A DNA stretch of 64,000 bases from Pseudobdellovibrionaceae bacterium (GTDB lineage Bacteria > Bdellovibrionota > Bdellovibrionia > Bdellovibrionales > Bdellovibrionaceae), in assembly GCA_039810425.1 (NCBI GenBank), contig JBDHWW010000005.1, positions 35,925 through 99,924 of the forward strand. Reading direction: 5' to 3'. Below are positions 1-5,903 of this stretch, in pieces; position 1 is the stretch's first letter; each line of letters opens with the position of its first letter. Under the pieces are notes generated by a model. The model was not told the origin of the DNA. It saw only the letters and a program-made list of their open reading frames with translations, and made no database searches. Position numbers and translations under genes: made by a program.

Positions 1-1175
1 AAAGCCGACTATATACTACGGCGCTGTCGCAGTTCTTGAATTTTTTTAAACACGCTCAAGGTGTGACGATGAAAGTGGCTCACCTTGCAAGCTTCATCGA
101 ACTAGGGTTGCCCGGCGAACTTCGTAAAGCCTTTGCCGATATGGCTGAGCATGCGGAGCCTTTGCCGCCGGAAACTATCGCGGGAGTCATTAGGAAAGAT
201 TTTGGCCGTGAACCGGAAGAGCTGTTTCTTAAGTGGGACAAAGACCCGTTGGCGAGAACCAGCTTGGGCCAAGTGCACCGAGCTCAGTTGGTGGATGGCA
301 CCGAAGTCGTTGTCAAACTGCAGAATCCGGATATTCGTAAAATACTTGAAAACCAGTTCCGGAAAATTGAAGGGCTTCACCGTATCTCTTTGTTTTTTGA
401 GAGTGGGGATGAACTGTTGCTTGAAGATATTAAGCGACAAGTTCTGCTTGAGATTGATTACCGGCGCGAAGCATACAATCAACGTCGTTTTCAAAATATA
501 TTTGTGAATGACAAACAGGTCATAGTACCCAGGGTGCATCTCGAATATTCAAGTGATCGCGTTTTAACTTCAGACTATATTGCCGGCCGCTCTTTCGACG
601 ATTTTAAACGTCAATCATCTCAGAAAGAACGCGATGAGGCCGCACAAACAATTCATCGATTTATTGCCAAATCCCTTATGGGACCCGGCTGGTTTTATGC
701 TGACCCTCACCCACGAAACTTTAAATTTCTTGACGACAAAGTAGTATTTTTAGATTTCGGCCGGATTGTTGAATACGACGTCGAGTTCCTACAGTTAAAT
801 CGTATCTTTTTTAAGGCCTTATTAAATGAGGACTACACCCTGGCGAAGTCATTAATGATCAAAATGGGTTCTGTTGAAGATCCCGAAAAGTTCAATTTCG
901 AAGTTTTTTGGAGCTTTCTGAGCTTGCAACAAGTTCACTACATGACCAATCGTAAATTCAAATGCACCCCGGACCATATGCGCCGCCTGGCTTTGGAAGC
1001 CCGCCGCTTTGGTGGGCGCAAGGGATTGAAGGTGGATAAGTGGTTTTTTTGGGCGTTCGTTTATCAGAATTCCGTCTTTAGCATTTGTGCCGATCTTCAA
1101 GCCGAGAGCAACTGGCGCTCAGATGTTTTTGCCATACTCGACGAGTGTGAAGCAGAGACTTTAGTCTTAAAATAA
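1..1175 (+). CDS. ABC1/AarF/UbiB-family atypical kinase, 5'-truncated by the window edge
   Basis: Motifs SLGQVH, VVKLQNP, EIDYRREA, ADPHPRN, LDFG. The frame is open back to position 3 (SRLYTTALSQFLNFF...), so the true start probably lies upstream of the window. Paralog of 1797..3251. Confidence 0.85.
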   Translation, partial: SRLYTTALSQFLNFFKHAQGVTMKVAHLASFIELGLPGELRKAFADMAEHAEPLPPETIAGVIRKDFGREPEELFLKWDKDPLARTSLGQVHRAQLVDGTEVVVKLQNPDIRKILENQFRKIEGLHRISLFFESGDELLLEDIKRQVLLEIDYRREAYNQRRFQNIFVNDKQVIVPRVHLEYSSDRVLTSDYIAGRSFDDFKRQSSQKERDEAAQTIHRFIAKSLMGPGWFYADPHPRNFKFLDDKVVFLDFGRIVEYDVEFLQLNRIFFKALLNEDYTLAKSLMIKMGSVEDPEKFNFEVFWSFLSLQQVHYMTNRKFKCTPDHMRRLALEARRFGGRKGLKVDKWFFWAFVYQNSVFSICADLQAESNWRSDVFAILDECEAETLVLK

Positions 1176-1334
1176 GACCCGATCTTTTGGATAAGCGACT
1201 TAGTTTCGGGGCTTGTCTCGTATTAGGACTTGCCAGTCCCAACTTTTAAAGATGTATATAGCATTCTTCAGGCGTTGAAAGATGAAGGTTTTATCAAAGT
1301 CTCCTATTGCTCTGATCTGGGATCATATTCCCCG

Positions 1335-1362
1335 AGGCTCAGCGTAATGCTGAGCCTTTTTT
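1335..1362 (+). terminator. Rho-independent terminator
   Basis: Perfect 9-bp stem AGGCTCAGC-gtaat-GCTGAGCCT followed by a T run. Confidence 0.75.
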
Positions 1363-1411
1363 CTTGCCGCTAAAGTCTTGGGCCGGATATCTTAAAAAAT
1401 CCGGAGGTCTT

Positions 1412-1681
1412 ATGAAGCCATCGTTATTGTTGATCGCTCTTCTTTTTTCGGTGAGTACTTTCGCGCAGCAGGGAAATGATCAGCGCACCGTTAGTGAGTG
1501 TGCGACGGACCTTAAAATTAAGCTCTGGTGGGATAGTACCAAGAAAAAAGAGGCCGAAAAGTTCTGCGCAGAGTATTCCCAAACTACAATCGATTGCGCC
1601 ATCAATAATATGAAAGCCAAGCACTTGACCTATACTCAATTCGAAAGTGCGGTCAAAGATTGCCACCGGACGCGCAAATAG
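1412..1681 (+). CDS. Small secreted hypothetical protein (4 Cys)
   Basis: GGAGG RBS before ATG 1412; signal peptide MKPSLLLIALLFSVSTFA. Confidence 0.75.
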   Translation: MKPSLLLIALLFSVSTFAQQGNDQRTVSECATDLKIKLWWDSTKKKEAEKFCAEYSQTTIDCAINNMKAKHLTYTQFESAVKDCHRTRK

Positions 1682-1796
1682 TCTGGTTAAAAATAAAACT
1701 ATTTTCTTTTGCAATCTCCATCACTCATAATGCACCCCATGACCAATTCATGGCCACTTACATCCAGCAGAGCGTTTAGTTTTACTACGGGAATTT

Positions 1797-3251
1797 TTGG
1801 GGTTTTCCCAGCGGGAAATGGCCAAAGAGTTTCAAGTTTCACCGGGTGCCATTGCGCTTTGGGAAACCGGCTCACGGGTTATTCCAGGCCCGGTGTTGAA
1901 GTTGATGGAGGTTTATGAAAAAGCCCTGCCGACGACGACAAGAAAGAATTCCTCACTCAAAACTGACGGTTTGTTGGTTGAGTTCAGGGAAGTTTTCAAT
2001 GCAAAAGGCAACGATGAAGTGCAAGGGGCGTTGGAGCTTATCAAGAACGGTTTAGATAATTTTCTGGATGATTCCTATGCCATGAATAGTTTGCGTGGCC
2101 GTCTGAAGTTGATTTTAGTAAAGAGACTTTTGAAGTCTTTAAAAAACTCCAAAGGTCTTTCAACGAAAATCGCCCAACTGGCGAGCTTTATGGAAATAGG
2201 CCTTTCCCCGGAAGTCCGTCGCGCTTTAGGAACCCTACAGTCTCGCAGCCTGCCAAGTAAGTTCAACGAGATTCAAAGCTTTTTGGAAGAGGAATATGGC
2301 AAGCCATTAAAAATGGTATTCTCGCATTTTCAAGAAAAGCCCATTGCGGTGACGAGCTTAGGGCAGGTTCATTATGCGAAATTGCCTGGAGGCCAGGAAG
2401 TGGCCGTTAAAGTCCAACATCCCCGGATTCACAGTATATTGCAGAAACAGTTTCGCAATATGGAACTCTTGAAAACCTTGGGAGCTTTTTTAGGAAAGAA
2501 CGACTACGGGATTATCGAAGAGCTGCGGCGGGCGTTGTTTCAGGAGTGTGATTATCAGCTAGAGGCTTTGAATCAAGAGAAGTTCCGAAATATTTGGTCT
2601 GAGGACCCGAGGATTATTGTTCCTTTTGTATACCGGGATTTAGTCCGAGACCGTGTCATGGTGACAGAGTTCATTCGGGGTGAAAGTTTTCACAGCTTTT
2701 GCGTCCGCGCCAGCCAAAGCCAACGAAACGAGGCGGCCGAAACGCTTTTGGACTGTTTAACCAAAGCGTCCTTTGGCTACGGCCAAATGTATACAGATCA
2801 ACATCCGGATAATTTTTTATTCCGTGATGGGAGAGTCGTGATATTGGATTTTGGCCGGGTGGTTGAATATCCCGTGGACCGTTTGAAAGTCGAGTGTCGG
2901 TTCTACCTGCACATGATGAATCAAGAATATGAAAAGTGCCGGGTCCTTGCGGAGACTCTTTTCGCCAAGGACGCAAACGATTTTGATTTCGATGCATTTT
3001 GGAATTTTCTGCAAAAATCCCATCAGCATTTAATAATCAATGAAAAGTTTAAGTTCTCGCGCCAATATGTGCAGTCTATCAGCCGGGAAGGGCGGATCTT
3101 CTCGAAAAAATACCAGCTCAAGATGACCAAAGAAGCGTTTTGGGCCTATGTTTTCGGTGCGAGCTCTTGGGGGATTTTGGCAGACCTTGATTCGGACATT
3201 AATTGCCGTCAGATTGCTTTAAAGAATGTCTATCTCGGCACTCAGCTTTAA
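1797..3251 (+). CDS. XRE-family HTH fused to an ABC1/UbiB-type atypical kinase (start uncertain, probably ~1739-1750)
   Basis: N-terminal (ERLVLLREF)LGFSQREMAKEFQVSPGAIALWETGSR is XRE-like; kinase motifs SLGQVH, VAVKVQHP, ECDYQLEA, TDQHPDN, LDFG. Confidence 0.85.
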   Translation: MGFSQREMAKEFQVSPGAIALWETGSRVIPGPVLKLMEVYEKALPTTTRKNSSLKTDGLLVEFREVFNAKGNDEVQGALELIKNGLDNFLDDSYAMNSLRGRLKLILVKRLLKSLKNSKGLSTKIAQLASFMEIGLSPEVRRALGTLQSRSLPSKFNEIQSFLEEEYGKPLKMVFSHFQEKPIAVTSLGQVHYAKLPGGQEVAVKVQHPRIHSILQKQFRNMELLKTLGAFLGKNDYGIIEELRRALFQECDYQLEALNQEKFRNIWSEDPRIIVPFVYRDLVRDRVMVTEFIRGESFHSFCVRASQSQRNEAAETLLDCLTKASFGYGQMYTDQHPDNFLFRDGRVVILDFGRVVEYPVDRLKVECRFYLHMMNQEYEKCRVLAETLFAKDANDFDFDAFWNFLQKSHQHLIINEKFKFSRQYVQSISREGRIFSKKYQLKMTKEAFWAYVFGASSWGILADLDSDINCRQIALKNVYLGTQL

Positions 3252-3501
3252 TAATTTAAAGCAGGTCCCAAATTATAGGGGCCCGCTTTTGAAATTCGAT
3301 AATTGAGCGATTTTAAAAGTGAAATTTTCGAGCGCTTACACTGTGAGCGAACCTGGAATTGCCTCCCTGTATCATTGCACAAATTCGAGGCAAACTAGTC
3401 TGGTTTGATACAAGTTTTTTTATTTTTCATCGCGGTTTCGTCAAGCCCTCTTACCCTAATGTGAGTGTTTCACACGTTATTACACGTTGCTGGGGGTATT
3501 T

Positions 3502-3903
3502 TTGTATAAGCGGGTTTGTCTGTTGATCTGCCTCGTGATGGGGCTAGGGAGTTTCTTCGCGGTCTCAAATAGTAAGGCGACGCCCGAGAAGAATGCGAAT
3601 GTAGCAGTTCCTGGGAAAGCGCCACAAACGACAAAGAATCAGTCGAGGCAGCAGTATCAGCTGATGATGCAAATGCAACAACAGCAGTATGCGAAAGCTC
3701 AATTAATCAGCAAATACGAAGAGCGCCAAAAAATTCAGGACGCTCTAGACTCGGTCTATCAGCGGGTTGAGCAGGCTAAGACCTTGCATCAAAGCAGCCG
3801 TTCAAAAGATGCGGCTCAAGCCGAGCGTATGCTGAAAAAACGGCAAAGCGCGCTGGCTGAGGAAATAAAACGTCTCGAGTCCCACCTAAAAAATAAATTC
3901 TGA
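3502..3903 (+). CDS. Secreted or membrane-anchored Gln-rich coiled-coil hypothetical protein
   Basis: Hydrophobic N-terminus and heptad-like C-terminus; GGGGG before TTG 3502 (alternative start 3487). Confidence 0.6.
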   Translation: MYKRVCLLICLVMGLGSFFAVSNSKATPEKNANVAVPGKAPQTTKNQSRQQYQLMMQMQQQQYAKAQLISKYEERQKIQDALDSVYQRVEQAKTLHQSSRSKDAAQAERMLKKRQSALAEEIKRLESHLKNKF

Positions 3904-3947: not shown

Positions 3948-5903
3948 ATGGGAAATACATGGAAGAGCCTAATTTTAGGCGCATTATTAACAAGTATGAC
4001 CGCTTGTAGTGGCGGCAGCTCAGTTAGCGACGGTGCTTCTAACAGTACTGATTTGGTGATCTCGGGTAAGGTTGGGGCTATGGGAACGATGAGTGTTTCC
4101 AACAACGCCTCTGAAGGTGTCGGCAAGTTTGGTACCTACGACAATGTTAAGCTGTACGTTACAGTTTACAATGACCCACCACAAATCACGGTGGCTAACT
4201 TAGGGAGCGACGGCTCTTTCTCTGTCACGCTTCCAAACGCCAGCGGCACTGTCATCGGTGCGCAATTTAAGAACACGCTGACCAACGTGGTAAAGCATGT
4301 GTACTTCCAAGATTCTAGCAAAAAGGACATGAATTCTTCTGACATGCTAATGGAATCTTATCCACTGAAAGGAAGTGTTAACTTCGGTACTTTGGATTTG
4401 TCCGGAGCAAAACCAGTTATTGACGTTGTTGCTGTCATCCCGGCTGAAAATCGCGCGGATGCTGGTGGCGATGTTGTTGGTTATGACTTTAGTGGTTCCT
4501 TCAAAATGGCTAGCTATAGCATTCCTCAAGCACTCAAAGACCAAGGCTTCATTACAGCTGAAGTGGACAACGGTGGTAACCATCAATCTTGTGGCGATGA
4601 GCCCTGTCTGCCTGTAGACATGCCAATCACTTTGGTGAAGTACTCAGGTAAAGAGTTCACTAAGGGCGCGGGTTGTACCGAAAGCGACTGTAAAGCAGAT
4701 GGTACGGAAGGAACTGTCGGCACGGCAAATAAGTACGGTCTTTCTATCTGGGAAGGTCCGGCATCAGGCGCAGGGAGCGGTCTTCAAGATTGCGGTTACA
4801 ATTCAGGCTTCACGGCGGACTCAGCTCGCTTCGGTGCTGGTATTCACATTGCTTCTGCCGCAATCGGTTCTCAAGCGATGAGTTTGGCTAATTTCACATT
4901 CGGTACGCTGGGCGGGACTGAGCCATGGATGAAGACGACCGCGGAGGCTCAATATGATGTCTATGATTGCGCACCAAAAGCGCACGTGGTCAGCGGGACG
5001 ACTTATAATCTGCATGTATGTAAAGCTTTGGTGTGGGCGGATAACGGCAACACGCTCGATAAGACCATTTACTATGCAAATGAACAAAGTGCGGACAACG
5101 GTTGCCTGGAAGACGGTACTAACAAGCCTGTGATGGTTTCTGACTGGAGTATTAATCCCGAGAATCCGAGTTGCTGGAGTGGTACGGAGGTTTTCCCTGG
5201 CTTTAAGCGCACCAGCTGTCACTATGTGAACCAAGATCCAGATGGCAGTGGTCCTGTGGCGGCAACATCATTCACTTGTAAAAGTGGACAAGGAACTTTT
5301 GCAGACGCAGCTTTGACGACAGCAGCAGTTCCTGGCATTAACTATTTCACAGATCCGACGACTCGTACAGGTTCACCGGCTAAGCTTTTAACTAAAGGCG
5401 GTCTTTGCAGCAGTCTTCCGACTGGAACGGATGCTGAGAAGCTCGCTTCCTACCAGTGTTTTGCTCAAAGTTATGATCGTAACGACGGCGGTGGCTGTAT
5501 GCGTGAGTATCGCTTCAACTGGGGGGCTAAAACTTCAGCTGATTTTGTGATGACAGACGGTCGTCCTCGTCCAAGTTCGAACTTTTTGACAGACATCGTG
5601 ACTTATTCAGCAGATGGAAACACGTTCTTTGTTAACAACAACGAAAAGGAAACAGTGGGTATTTCTTCCGGCCAAAATGGCGGAATGGAATTCTGCGAAA
5701 TCGAGAGCTCTACGAAACTTGTAGGTAAGAAAATGAGTGATGGCCAGCAATTGGTCACCTTGGTTCAATCTGGAGTTTTGCTGAGCTCTGACAAGACTGC
5801 TTGTGTGGCCGCAGTGAACGGTGCCGATACATGGGAAAATGGCAATCTTTCATACCGTGTAGGCGAAGGCAAAAAATTCATGTTCATTTTGAACAAACAA
5901 TAA
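3948..5903 (+). CDS. Large cysteine-rich lipoprotein of unknown function
   Basis: AAGGAG RBS; lipobox-like SMTA-C followed by a Ser/Gly linker; 16 further Cys. Confidence 0.85.
   Translation: MGNTWKSLILGALLTSMTACSGGSSVSDGASNSTDLVISGKVGAMGTMSVSNNASEGVGKFGTYDNVKLYVTVYNDPPQITVANLGSDGSFSVTLPNASGTVIGAQFKNTLTNVVKHVYFQDSSKKDMNSSDMLMESYPLKGSVNFGTLDLSGAKPVIDVVAVIPAENRADAGGDVVGYDFSGSFKMASYSIPQALKDQGFITAEVDNGGNHQSCGDEPCLPVDMPITLVKYSGKEFTKGAGCTESDCKADGTEGTVGTANKYGLSIWEGPASGAGSGLQDCGYNSGFTADSARFGAGIHIASAAIGSQAMSLANFTFGTLGGTEPWMKTTAEAQYDVYDCAPKAHVVSGTTYNLHVCKALVWADNGNTLDKTIYYANEQSADNGCLEDGTNKPVMVSDWSINPENPSCWSGTEVFPGFKRTSCHYVNQDPDGSGPVAATSFTCKSGQGTFADAALTTAAVPGINYFTDPTTRTGSPAKLLTKGGLCSSLPTGTDAEKLASYQCFAQSYDRNDGGGCMREYRFNWGAKTSADFVMTDGRPRPSSNFLTDIVTYSADGNTFFVNNNEKETVGISSGQNGGMEFCEIESSTKLVGKKMSDGQQLVTLVQSGVLLSSDKTACVAAVNGADTWENGNLSYRVGEGKKFMFILNKQ

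Follow-up and report, generated by a model that had tools for sequence, protein, structure and literature searches.

Fusions of an XRE helix-turn-helix to an ABC1 kinase-fold domain in Bdellovibrionota and Myxococcota: a rare protein family with a predicted palindromic operator

The proteins described here join an XRE-type helix-turn-helix (HTH) DNA-binding domain to a kinase-like ABC1 domain, and are encoded in a 64,000-nucleotide stretch of the genome of a Pseudobdellovibrionaceae bacterium (GenBank assembly GCA_039810425.1). This stretch, hereafter called the window, corresponds to G000:C5:35925-99924, G000 being the 3.54-Mb genome; the DNA located 5' of the window was also read. Three tandem XRE-HTH–ABC1 paralogues, named A, B and C, are present at the locus, A and B beginning upstream of the window. 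The ATG of copy B is located 322 bases 5' of the window edge (L001:12679), and copy A (469 amino acids) lies upstream of B. Pairwise identities are 46% between A and B, 39% between A and C, and 37.5% between B and C. An earlier description of the window made from its letters, the original prediction, reported two ABC1-type kinase genes about 600 bp apart, separated by a terminator and a small secreted protein with four cysteines. Both open reading frames (ORFs) were confirmed (3-1175 and 1743-3251; PF03109, 173 and 180 bits, cut-off 22.9), with a spacing of ~565 bp, and a hairpin and a short signal-peptide ORF lie between them (Table 1). The hairpin matches the terminator consensus only: the scan returned 10 such sites compared with 7.4 in shuffles, and the count alone is therefore no evidence.

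Table 1. Features of the locus, in window coordinates
Feature	Position	Strand	Remarks
Copy B (P0001, 498 aa), 3' part	1..1175	+	ABC1 domain ~144-845; KVAH 72-83; intact XRE-HTH–ABC1 fusion
Terminator-like hairpin, 11 pairs and T tail	1334-1358	+	consensus match only
89-aa signal-peptide ORF, 4 Cys	1412-1681	+	no family assigned
-10-like hexamer CATAAT, 7 bases ahead of ATG 1739	1726-1741	+	putative promoter element
Copy C open frame (P0003, 502 aa)	1743-3251	+	HTH ~1770-1907; ABC1 ~2235-2942
Predicted operator	3332-3350	.	core palindrome 3334-3348; top-scoring site of the genome, 18.7 bits
138-aa signal-peptide, coiled-coil-like ORF	3487-3903	+	predicted first target gene
651-aa Cys-rich, beta-rich lipoprotein (P0270)	3948-5903	+	predicted target gene; no known family

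An XRE HTH had been proposed at the N-terminus of the second ABC1 gene (copy C) and suspected on the first (copy B), which is cut by the window edge. The HTH of copy C matches Pfam HTH_19, HTH_3 and HTH_31 with E values of 2e-5 to 3e-4, each slightly below the curated cut-off, and that of copy B was found in the DNA upstream of the window. Structure prediction agreed with this assignment: in the model of copy B (predicted local distance difference test score, pLDDT, 84; predicted template modelling score, pTM, 0.77), the HTH folds as four helices (residues 3-56, pLDDT ~85-95) and is followed by a low-confidence linker and by a complete KxGQ-plus-kinase fold. Proteins P0001 and P0002 carry a precomputed PF01381 label, and an atlas cluster of 60 proteins shares the architecture, with HTH_3 on 70% of them.

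The best fold matches of the copy B model are COQ8A (E 1e-19, Z 33.2, root-mean-square deviation 3.8 over 368 aligned residues, within residues 114-494) and Rv3197 (Z 26.6, deviation 4.5 over 334 aligned residues), the next hit having a Z of 13.5. The likeness to COQ8A/ADCK3 (PDB 4ped, 5i35, 7udq) includes the KxGQ domain, and the Lys, the two Glu, the Asp/Asn and the DFG residues align. However, identity is ~20%, and COQ8A has no HTH, is membrane-anchored and acts in coenzyme Q synthesis, whereas the fused proteins studied here have no strong hydrophobic helix (best 19-residue hydropathy 0.9-1.5, compared with 1.8 in E. coli UbiB) and carry Thr at the position of A339. The best PDB sequence matches are MABP-1 (Rv3197) and MSMEG_1954 (E 8e-25). 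MSMEG_1954 is a soluble ABC1 ATPase whose ligand pocket, bordered by K67, E191 and D281, opens when ADP binds (PMC8696161). In a hand-read alignment these residues correspond to K132, D250 and D342 of copy B, whereas the pocket residue R195 is not kept in the three copies (Q, K and A). Neither MABP-1 nor MSMEG_1954 has an HTH, and the copies score 105-161 bits against the NF050082 cut-off of 800.

Copies A, B and C are members of a rare Bdellovibrionota/Myxococcota family of XRE-HTH–ABC1 proteins. In a homologue search in which the best 120 of 8,000 scored candidates were listed, the HTH was present in 31 of the 32 proteins P0004-P0035, the exception being a partial protein, and by the same pattern in none of 86 lower-ranked matches. 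In a scan of genome contigs based on the HTH, the best 80 of 108 loci were kept and the top 26 examined. By title, these 26 comprise one Planctomycetales bin and one unclassified bin, all others being Bdellovibrionota, Myxococcota or unplaced deltaproteobacteria; 19 encode fusions and 7 are short stand-alone HTH genes, several of the latter near ParA, resolvase, insertion sequence or HipA-like genes. Of 401 genomes of the window's phylum, 32 have the HTH subfamily and 16 a long fused frame; in the class of G043, the subfamily occurs in 3 of 301 genomes, one of which has six copies. Full-length matches were found in 2 of 41 close relatives.

The kinase domains of the fused proteins also group together. 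In a FastTree phylogeny of 147 of 186 kinase domains, a number reached by thinning the unfused rows, 80 of the 82 fused rows fall into a single clade (support 0.77) that also takes in 2 unfused rows. A quick IQ-TREE run used 72 rows, sampled after the removal of two unfused rows and of five fused ones that were short, degenerate or near-copies; it placed all 42 fused rows within a 46-row clade (SH-aLRT, the Shimodaira–Hasegawa-like approximate likelihood ratio test, 87) together with 4 unfused rows. These sequence comparisons suggest a single origin of the fusion. At the locus itself, A and B group apart from C, and the duplication is therefore old. A separate observation concerns the stand-alone HTH relatives of 60-130 residues (L027, L030, L031, L036, L037, L038, L126, L245, L248 and L251): they mostly have two palindromes 36-57 bases apart upstream and often face a divergent ParA, resolvase or replication-like gene. 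They may form a repressor family of Bdellovibrionota mobile elements, and this family is a likely source of the fused HTH.

The original prediction also held that these proteins derive from UbiB and are unrelated to quinone synthesis. The second part is borne out: the copies reach 133-156 bits with TIGR01982, the cut-off of which is 488. E. coli UbiB (TIGR01982, PRK04750) shares the PF03109 domain with them, but in both trees it forms, with the unfused ABC1 gene on contig C2 of G000, a separate and strongly supported branch. No ubi genes (ubiE/ubiJ) adjoin the fused loci. In the 99.9% complete genome, UbiG did not pass its cut-off and SCP2/UbiJ had no match, these two families being the only ones searched, and the UbiB-like gene that G000 has elsewhere scores 413 bits, also below the TIGR01982 cut-off. 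As to descent, an ABC1-family origin holds, and the source is the COQ8/MABP-1-like ABC1 branch instead of UbiB itself. Beyond the locus, G000 has three ABC1 matches. Two are unfused genes, located on C2 and C37; the third, a UbiB-like ABC1 gene on the 2.6-kb contig C143 (L019), lies beside an ORF that resembles an integron integrase by eye, and could be a bin contaminant.

The frames of the three copies differ in integrity. Copy A has a -1 frameshift, one base being lost in a T run near the 3' end relative to its orthologue. Copy C has no in-frame start codon before helix 1 of the HTH and, compared with its orthologues, carries one extra base between 1742 and 1760, which amounts to a +1 frameshift after the ATG. 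This ATG, at 1739, lines up with the start codons of two orthologues and has a leaderless-type layout that is the same in the orthologues, but its reading frame is offset by one base from that of copy C. Copy C is thus probably broken at its 5' end. As A and C are frameshifted, only B retains an unbroken frame in G000. Assembly errors were considered. The start region of copy C is letter-identical in a contig of an independent run from another study (X4, depth 3.1), which makes an error unlikely there; the frameshift site of copy A is covered only by run X1, possibly the source of the DNA itself. When 50 orthologous genes were checked for split hits in this assembly, no case was found. Among the data sets listed as carrying the sequence, none was RNA.

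Within the fused proteins, conservation is highest in the HTH (mean pairwise identity of 60%, compared with 39% for the kinase domain), and we therefore looked for spaced palindromes of any kind ahead of the family genes. After removal of three near-copies from the 40 genes, 37 upstream regions of 200 bases each were scanned. The five top-ranking dyads have a common centre and z scores of 5.1-7.1, compared with a null maximum of 4.5 (95th percentile) or 5.3 (largest of 30 shuffled sets). The refined matrix has the consensus YGCTYAC-N3-GTRAGCR. In leave-one-out scoring, 23 of the 37 upstream regions reached at least 10 bits, with control medians near 0-2. Among held-out loci, 10 of 18 had at least 10 bits upstream, compared with 181 of 14,075 G000 windows (1.3%), and in loci of unrelated HTH genes, used as a control, 11 sites at 12 bits were counted in 739 kb. 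When the 3.54-Mb genome was scanned with a matrix built without the sites of G000 and of its closest relative, the best site (18.7 bits) was found at window position 3332-3350, 80 bases past the stop codon of copy C. The relative G001 has an 18.5-bit site at the equivalent place, and 3332-3350 forms a conserved island in the L022 alignment. The region 1681-1750, ahead of copy C, has no predicted operator (best leave-one-out score 1.9 bits), and a sigma-70 scan gave no promoter close to the operator.

The palindrome also follows the fusion genes in other genomes. Among the matches listed, with 10 more beyond the listing, exact matches lie beside fusion genes in G041 (4 of 5), G043 (1 of 1) and G044 (1 of 2); for G042 and G045, the listing has no exact match. 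Counts of the pattern with one mismatch, relative to a reversed control, were 14/7, 26/13, 21/10, 9/7 and 10/14 in five genomes. A genome-wide regulon in G000 was considered and rejected, 74 sites of at least 12 bits being found compared with 26-130 with shuffled matrices. Three further observations concern the sites. Exact matches at L217 (G044:C1:768158) and L226 (G041:C287:14927) precede a secreted protein and a cytochrome P450, respectively; these 3-kb loci, which contain no fusion gene, are possible distal regulon members. The Myxococcaceae genome G042 has six dispersed fusion genes (L284, L286-L290), several with a site ahead of a neighbour gene, which represents a lineage-specific expansion. 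Finally, the fused genes L039, L040 and L041 encode an altered recognition helix (HTAVSSW) and Gly at the A339-equivalent position, and have a variant palindrome, missed by the matrix, with a TCCAC-N3-GTGGA core ~60 bases before the start; as judged from these sequences, covariation of helix and operator is possible.

Phage repressors and controllers of restriction-modification systems such as C.PvuII are autoregulated XRE proteins with palindromic operators. The fusion family resembles them in its XRE HTH, in the leaderless-type layout and in palindromes predicted at its own promoters, but differs by the fused 400-residue kinase-fold domain and by the palindrome itself; no restriction-modification genes were seen by eye beside the fused loci. 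It has the HTH_3-type domain of XRE regulators and, by computation, a palindromic operator that tracks the gene.

Downstream of the site in the window lie two genes that we predict to be its targets (Table 1). The product of the 138-residue ORF has a syntenic orthologue in G001 (36% identity). Among 301 genomes of the order, 45 encode a homologue of the 651-residue lipoprotein, and 20 such loci were fetched. A site of at least 18 bits is present in the three loci that adjoin a fusion gene (3/3, 18.5-19.1 bits); in one of them, L270, from another family, the arrangement is divergent. By contrast, none of the remaining 17 loci, which have no adjacent fusion gene, has such a site (best 8.2 bits), and the HTH family is found in 0 of 5 tested genomes among these loci. 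The lipoprotein has no Pfam, NCBIfam or PADLOC family and at 0.90 matches only hypothetical clusters in the atlas. Foldseek returned nothing at E up to 0.001 for its model (pLDDT 62), in which beta structure predominates and a low-confidence sandwich resembling an immunoglobulin or carbohydrate-binding module lies at the N-terminus. No partner gene is common to the fused loci beyond close kin. Among 22 site-adjacent genes, 9 encode a lipobox and 13 a lipobox or a signal-like start, whereas by the same rough rule 208 of 3,086 G000 ORFs (6.7%) have a lipobox and 27% a lipobox or signal-like start. Other site-adjacent genes encode a P450, a Cu-monooxygenase-like lipoprotein, a beta-lactamase-like hydrolase and DUF6463.

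The palindrome might belong to another regulator, the fusion genes and their neighbours being mere targets of host LexA (the SOS response) or of another global factor. The LexA box of B. bacteriovorus is TTAC-N3-GTAA (PMC3323433); the operator core overlaps it and the window site is one mismatch away, which counts against our assignment of the palindrome to the fusion family, and TAC-N3-GTA is enriched in the lexA promoters of relatives (10/31). However, the operator matrix reaches at least 10 bits in just 2 of 31 lexA promoters and 12 bits in none of them, the flanks of the lexA boxes are AT-rich whereas those of the operator motif are G/C, and the two lexA genes of G000 are preceded by palindromes with N4 and N7 spacing. 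Furthermore, the motif tracks the fusion family into Myxococcota and is missing at lipoprotein homologues without an adjacent fusion gene. We consider LexA or a comparable factor very improbable as the owner of the site, although LexA and the fusion protein might both occupy it. As an observation on the lexA-like genes themselves (L187, G000:C58, and L186, G000:C30), one is preceded by repeated TTAC-N4-GTAA-like sites, also present in G002, and the other by two GTAC-N7-GTAC repeats, also present in G001 and G005; neither spacing is the N3 of the published Bdellovibrio box.

We then compared the kinase motifs, which the original prediction regarded as rewired in a way that would free a protein kinase. 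The quoted motifs are present (KVAH/KIAQ, ARTS/AVTS, DPHPRN/DQHPDN and DFGR). Copies A, B and C have KLMQ, KVAH and KIAQ in place of KxGQ, and AVTS, ARTS and AVTS in the Ala-rich loop, exact KxGQ and AAAS being absent. Of the 82 fused and the 65 unfused rows, 80 and 63, respectively, retain the KxGQ Lys, 40 and 60 the Gly (which is replaced in 41 fused and 3 unfused rows) and 77 and 63 the Gln; copy B has His instead of this Gln. The A339-equivalent position is Ala in all 65 unfused rows, whereas in the 82 fused rows it is Ala in 47, Thr in 23, Gly in 11 and Ser in 1. Thr is characteristic of a 22-row clade (support 0.96) to which the three copies of the window belong. Arg follows DFG in 40 of the 82 fused rows and in 1 of the 65 unfused ones. 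The change in HPGN does not stand as a shared hallmark: the Gly is kept in 66 of 82 fused and 64 of 65 unfused rows, and COQ8A reads DPNWSN at this place. The KxGQ Gly persists in 40 of 82 fused rows and the Ala in 47 of 82, about half in each case, and the fusion is therefore independent of these changes. The drift is real and specific to fused proteins, many of which are canonical; it came after the fusion and was no precondition for it. In this fold, the KxGQ Lys is the partner of the first Glu of ExDYxxE, and the VK Lys that of the second. Both Glu are kept in 81 of 82 fused and in all 65 unfused rows, and the catalytic Asp and Asn in 81 of 82 fused rows. The two Glu matter for MSMEG_1954's activity as an ATPase (PMC8696161), and the KxGQ Gln holds the water for ATP hydrolysis in COQ8 (bioRxiv 10.1101/149823). 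The Gln-to-His change of copy B is unusual and may lower its ATPase activity.

These counts bear on a second alternative, in which the ABC1 domain is a true protein kinase and autophosphorylation, or phosphorylation of the HTH, switches DNA binding. Replacement of the KxGQ Gly in half of the fused rows would fit such a kinase, and so would the Gly found at the A339-equivalent position in 11 of 82, as this change raises COQ8A autophosphorylation; in addition, wild-type AtABC1K6 and ADCK3 autophosphorylate with Mn2+ (PMC8956952). However, the COQ8 mutants with raised autophosphorylation combine the Ala-to-Gly change in the Ala-rich loop with a Lys-to-His change in KxGQ (bioRxiv 10.1101/149823; PMC8956952; PMC7877690), and neither change is present in the window, where the Lys is kept and the A339 equivalent is Thr. 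The model of copy B retains the whole KxGQ domain, and many fused members are fully canonical. An autokinase switch is thus improbable, and of the one-component kinase-regulator originally proposed, the regulator built on an ABC1-family domain stands as a prediction, whereas the case for a rewired kinase is weak.

The original prediction had further suggested a fused HipBA-like toxin or defence module. HipBA likewise combines an XRE protein with an atypical kinase, but the kinase family is another one and the proteins described here are single polypeptides. A toxin-antitoxin or anti-phage role would be in line with the weakly antitoxin-like character of the HTH (TIGR03830, MqsA family, 24-31 bits, cut-off 62), with the location of stand-alone relatives on mobile DNA, two of them near HipA-like genes, and with the patchy distribution (16/401 genomes of the phylum with a long fused frame; 3/301 in the class of G043). 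However, the HipA domain PF07804 (HipA_C) had no match in the copies at E up to 0.1, in a library that does detect the HipA-like gene of L030, and PADLOC returned only generic kinase or HTH models at E 5e-6 or weaker. Around the 26 loci there is neither a conserved partner gene nor a defence island, flanking genes being housekeeping or lipoprotein genes, and the sites point to the control of separate genes. Viral contigs gave no family-level match. A toxin or defence module therefore seems hardly credible. A phage origin was also considered and rejected: 23 viral loci gave no match at the level of the family, the best one (E 3e-8 across 36 residues) being of the kind that unrelated HTHs give.

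Taken together, we give slightly better than an even chance to a one-component transcription factor in which a nucleotide and a lipophilic ligand, bound in the ABC1 domain, would control operator binding. In this proposal, an XRE HTH of a subfamily that also exists as stand-alone repressor-like genes on mobile DNA is joined by a variable linker to a complete COQ8/MABP-1-type ABC1 domain. We infer that the HTH, presumably dimeric, would bind YGCTYAC-N3-GTRAGCR at its own promoter and/or before adjacent targets, often genes for lipoproteins or secreted proteins; in the window, the site at 3332-3350 would control the genes at 3487 and 3948. The ABC1 domain would most likely act not as a protein kinase but as a nucleotide-gated sensor ATPase, in which the entry of a lipophilic or membrane-derived ligand into the KxGQ pocket would shift the N-terminal helices beside the HTH linker and thereby alter DNA binding. 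A precedent for sensing exists, as a UbiB-family ATPase is activated by 2-alkylphenols and cardiolipin (bioRxiv 10.1101/149823). In L023 and L029, the centre of the predicted site lies 8-10 bases ahead of the start codon, an overlap that suggests repression, whereas other sites, located 43-152 bases upstream, could activate; we regard repression as somewhat likelier than activation.

The ABC1 domain could instead be the working part of a bifunctional enzyme-repressor, acting as a MABP-1-like ligand-sequestering ATPase or as a small-molecule or lipid kinase, the HTH merely tying its own expression and that of its neighbours to this activity. The near-complete retention of both Glu and of the catalytic Asp and Asn (81/82 each) agrees with this alternative, as does the fact that MABP-1 and MSMEG_1954 act without an HTH; in Myxococcota, P450, Cu-monooxygenase and beta-lactamase-like genes adjoin the sites. 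However, the HTH is better conserved than the enzyme domain, and sites often precede separate target genes and not the fusion gene. Moreover, drift in the Ala-rich loop is found only in fused proteins (35/82, compared with 0/65), which suggests relaxed catalytic constraint. We consider an enzyme-repressor unlikely.

Several results weigh against the ligand-controlled transcription factor proposed above. An upstream site is absent in 14 of 37 training and 8 of 18 held-out regions, and only 3 of 7 new fused genes have one (5 of 7 have a site within the 3-kb locus). At the locus itself, copies A and C have no upstream site and that of B reaches only 10.4 bits. Kin are not independent, and some training loci are near-copies. 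Column-shuffled matrices give 0-5 sites of at least 18 bits (10 shuffles), so that one real site of this strength is not unusual; as the number of strong sites does not exceed that of shuffled matrices, only the position of 3332-3350 is significant. The 22 target genes were picked by eye and are mostly non-homologous across loci, the lipobox rule is a rough heuristic, and 9 of the 22 have neither lipobox nor signal. Finally, the locus may be decaying, as two of the three copies carry frameshifts and the KxGQ Gln is replaced by His in B.

Other features of the region were also recorded. The 89-residue ORF with four cysteines has no homologue in G000 nor at any fetched locus; it is an orphan inserted between B and C behind the terminator-like hairpin, and is absent at the G001 locus. 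Rfam gave no match to a structured RNA in L001 10900-17100. The same short sequence opens four G000 contigs (C3, C18, C58 and C102; first 30 bases), which suggests an unresolved repeat such as an insertion element.

The fusion is already visible in automatic annotation labels. In the open-licence PMC and bioRxiv literature, subscription papers being outside the scope of the search, we found no description of an XRE-HTH–ABC1 fusion or of its operator. The accessible text of the DdiA paper (PMC12288472) and of PMC1183210 describes no such fusion, and TnmR2/R3 (PMC9464397) are, in the text available, unfused ABC1 genes labelled as regulators in an enediyne cluster. The family would be a variant of the XRE one-component regulators with an unprecedented sensor domain and a testable predicted operator. 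Whether UbiB/ABC1 proteins are protein kinases, lipid kinases or ligand-gated ATPases is a long-standing question (PMC8956952; bioRxiv 10.1101/149823). The coupling of this domain to DNA binding, together with the predicted operator, would allow a reporter assay in E. coli for ligand screens and motif-by-motif tests, and the family provides natural variants at positions mutated in the COQ8 work, such as the A339 equivalent. More tentatively, at somewhat less than an even chance, operator binding might be gated by a nucleotide together with a lipid, phenolic or macrocyclic ligand in the KxGQ pocket, so that predatory bacteria would sense a cue from prey or membrane through the ABC1 domain and adjust their surface lipoproteins; the recurrent natural Ala-to-Gly and Ala-to-Thr changes would then tune ATPase, autokinase and pure-sensor modes. 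For predatory bacteria, the locus provides a candidate regulator and regulon for uncharacterised surface lipoproteins; the fusion proteins probably switch neighbouring surface-protein genes, and could be used to read out what the ABC1 kinase family senses.

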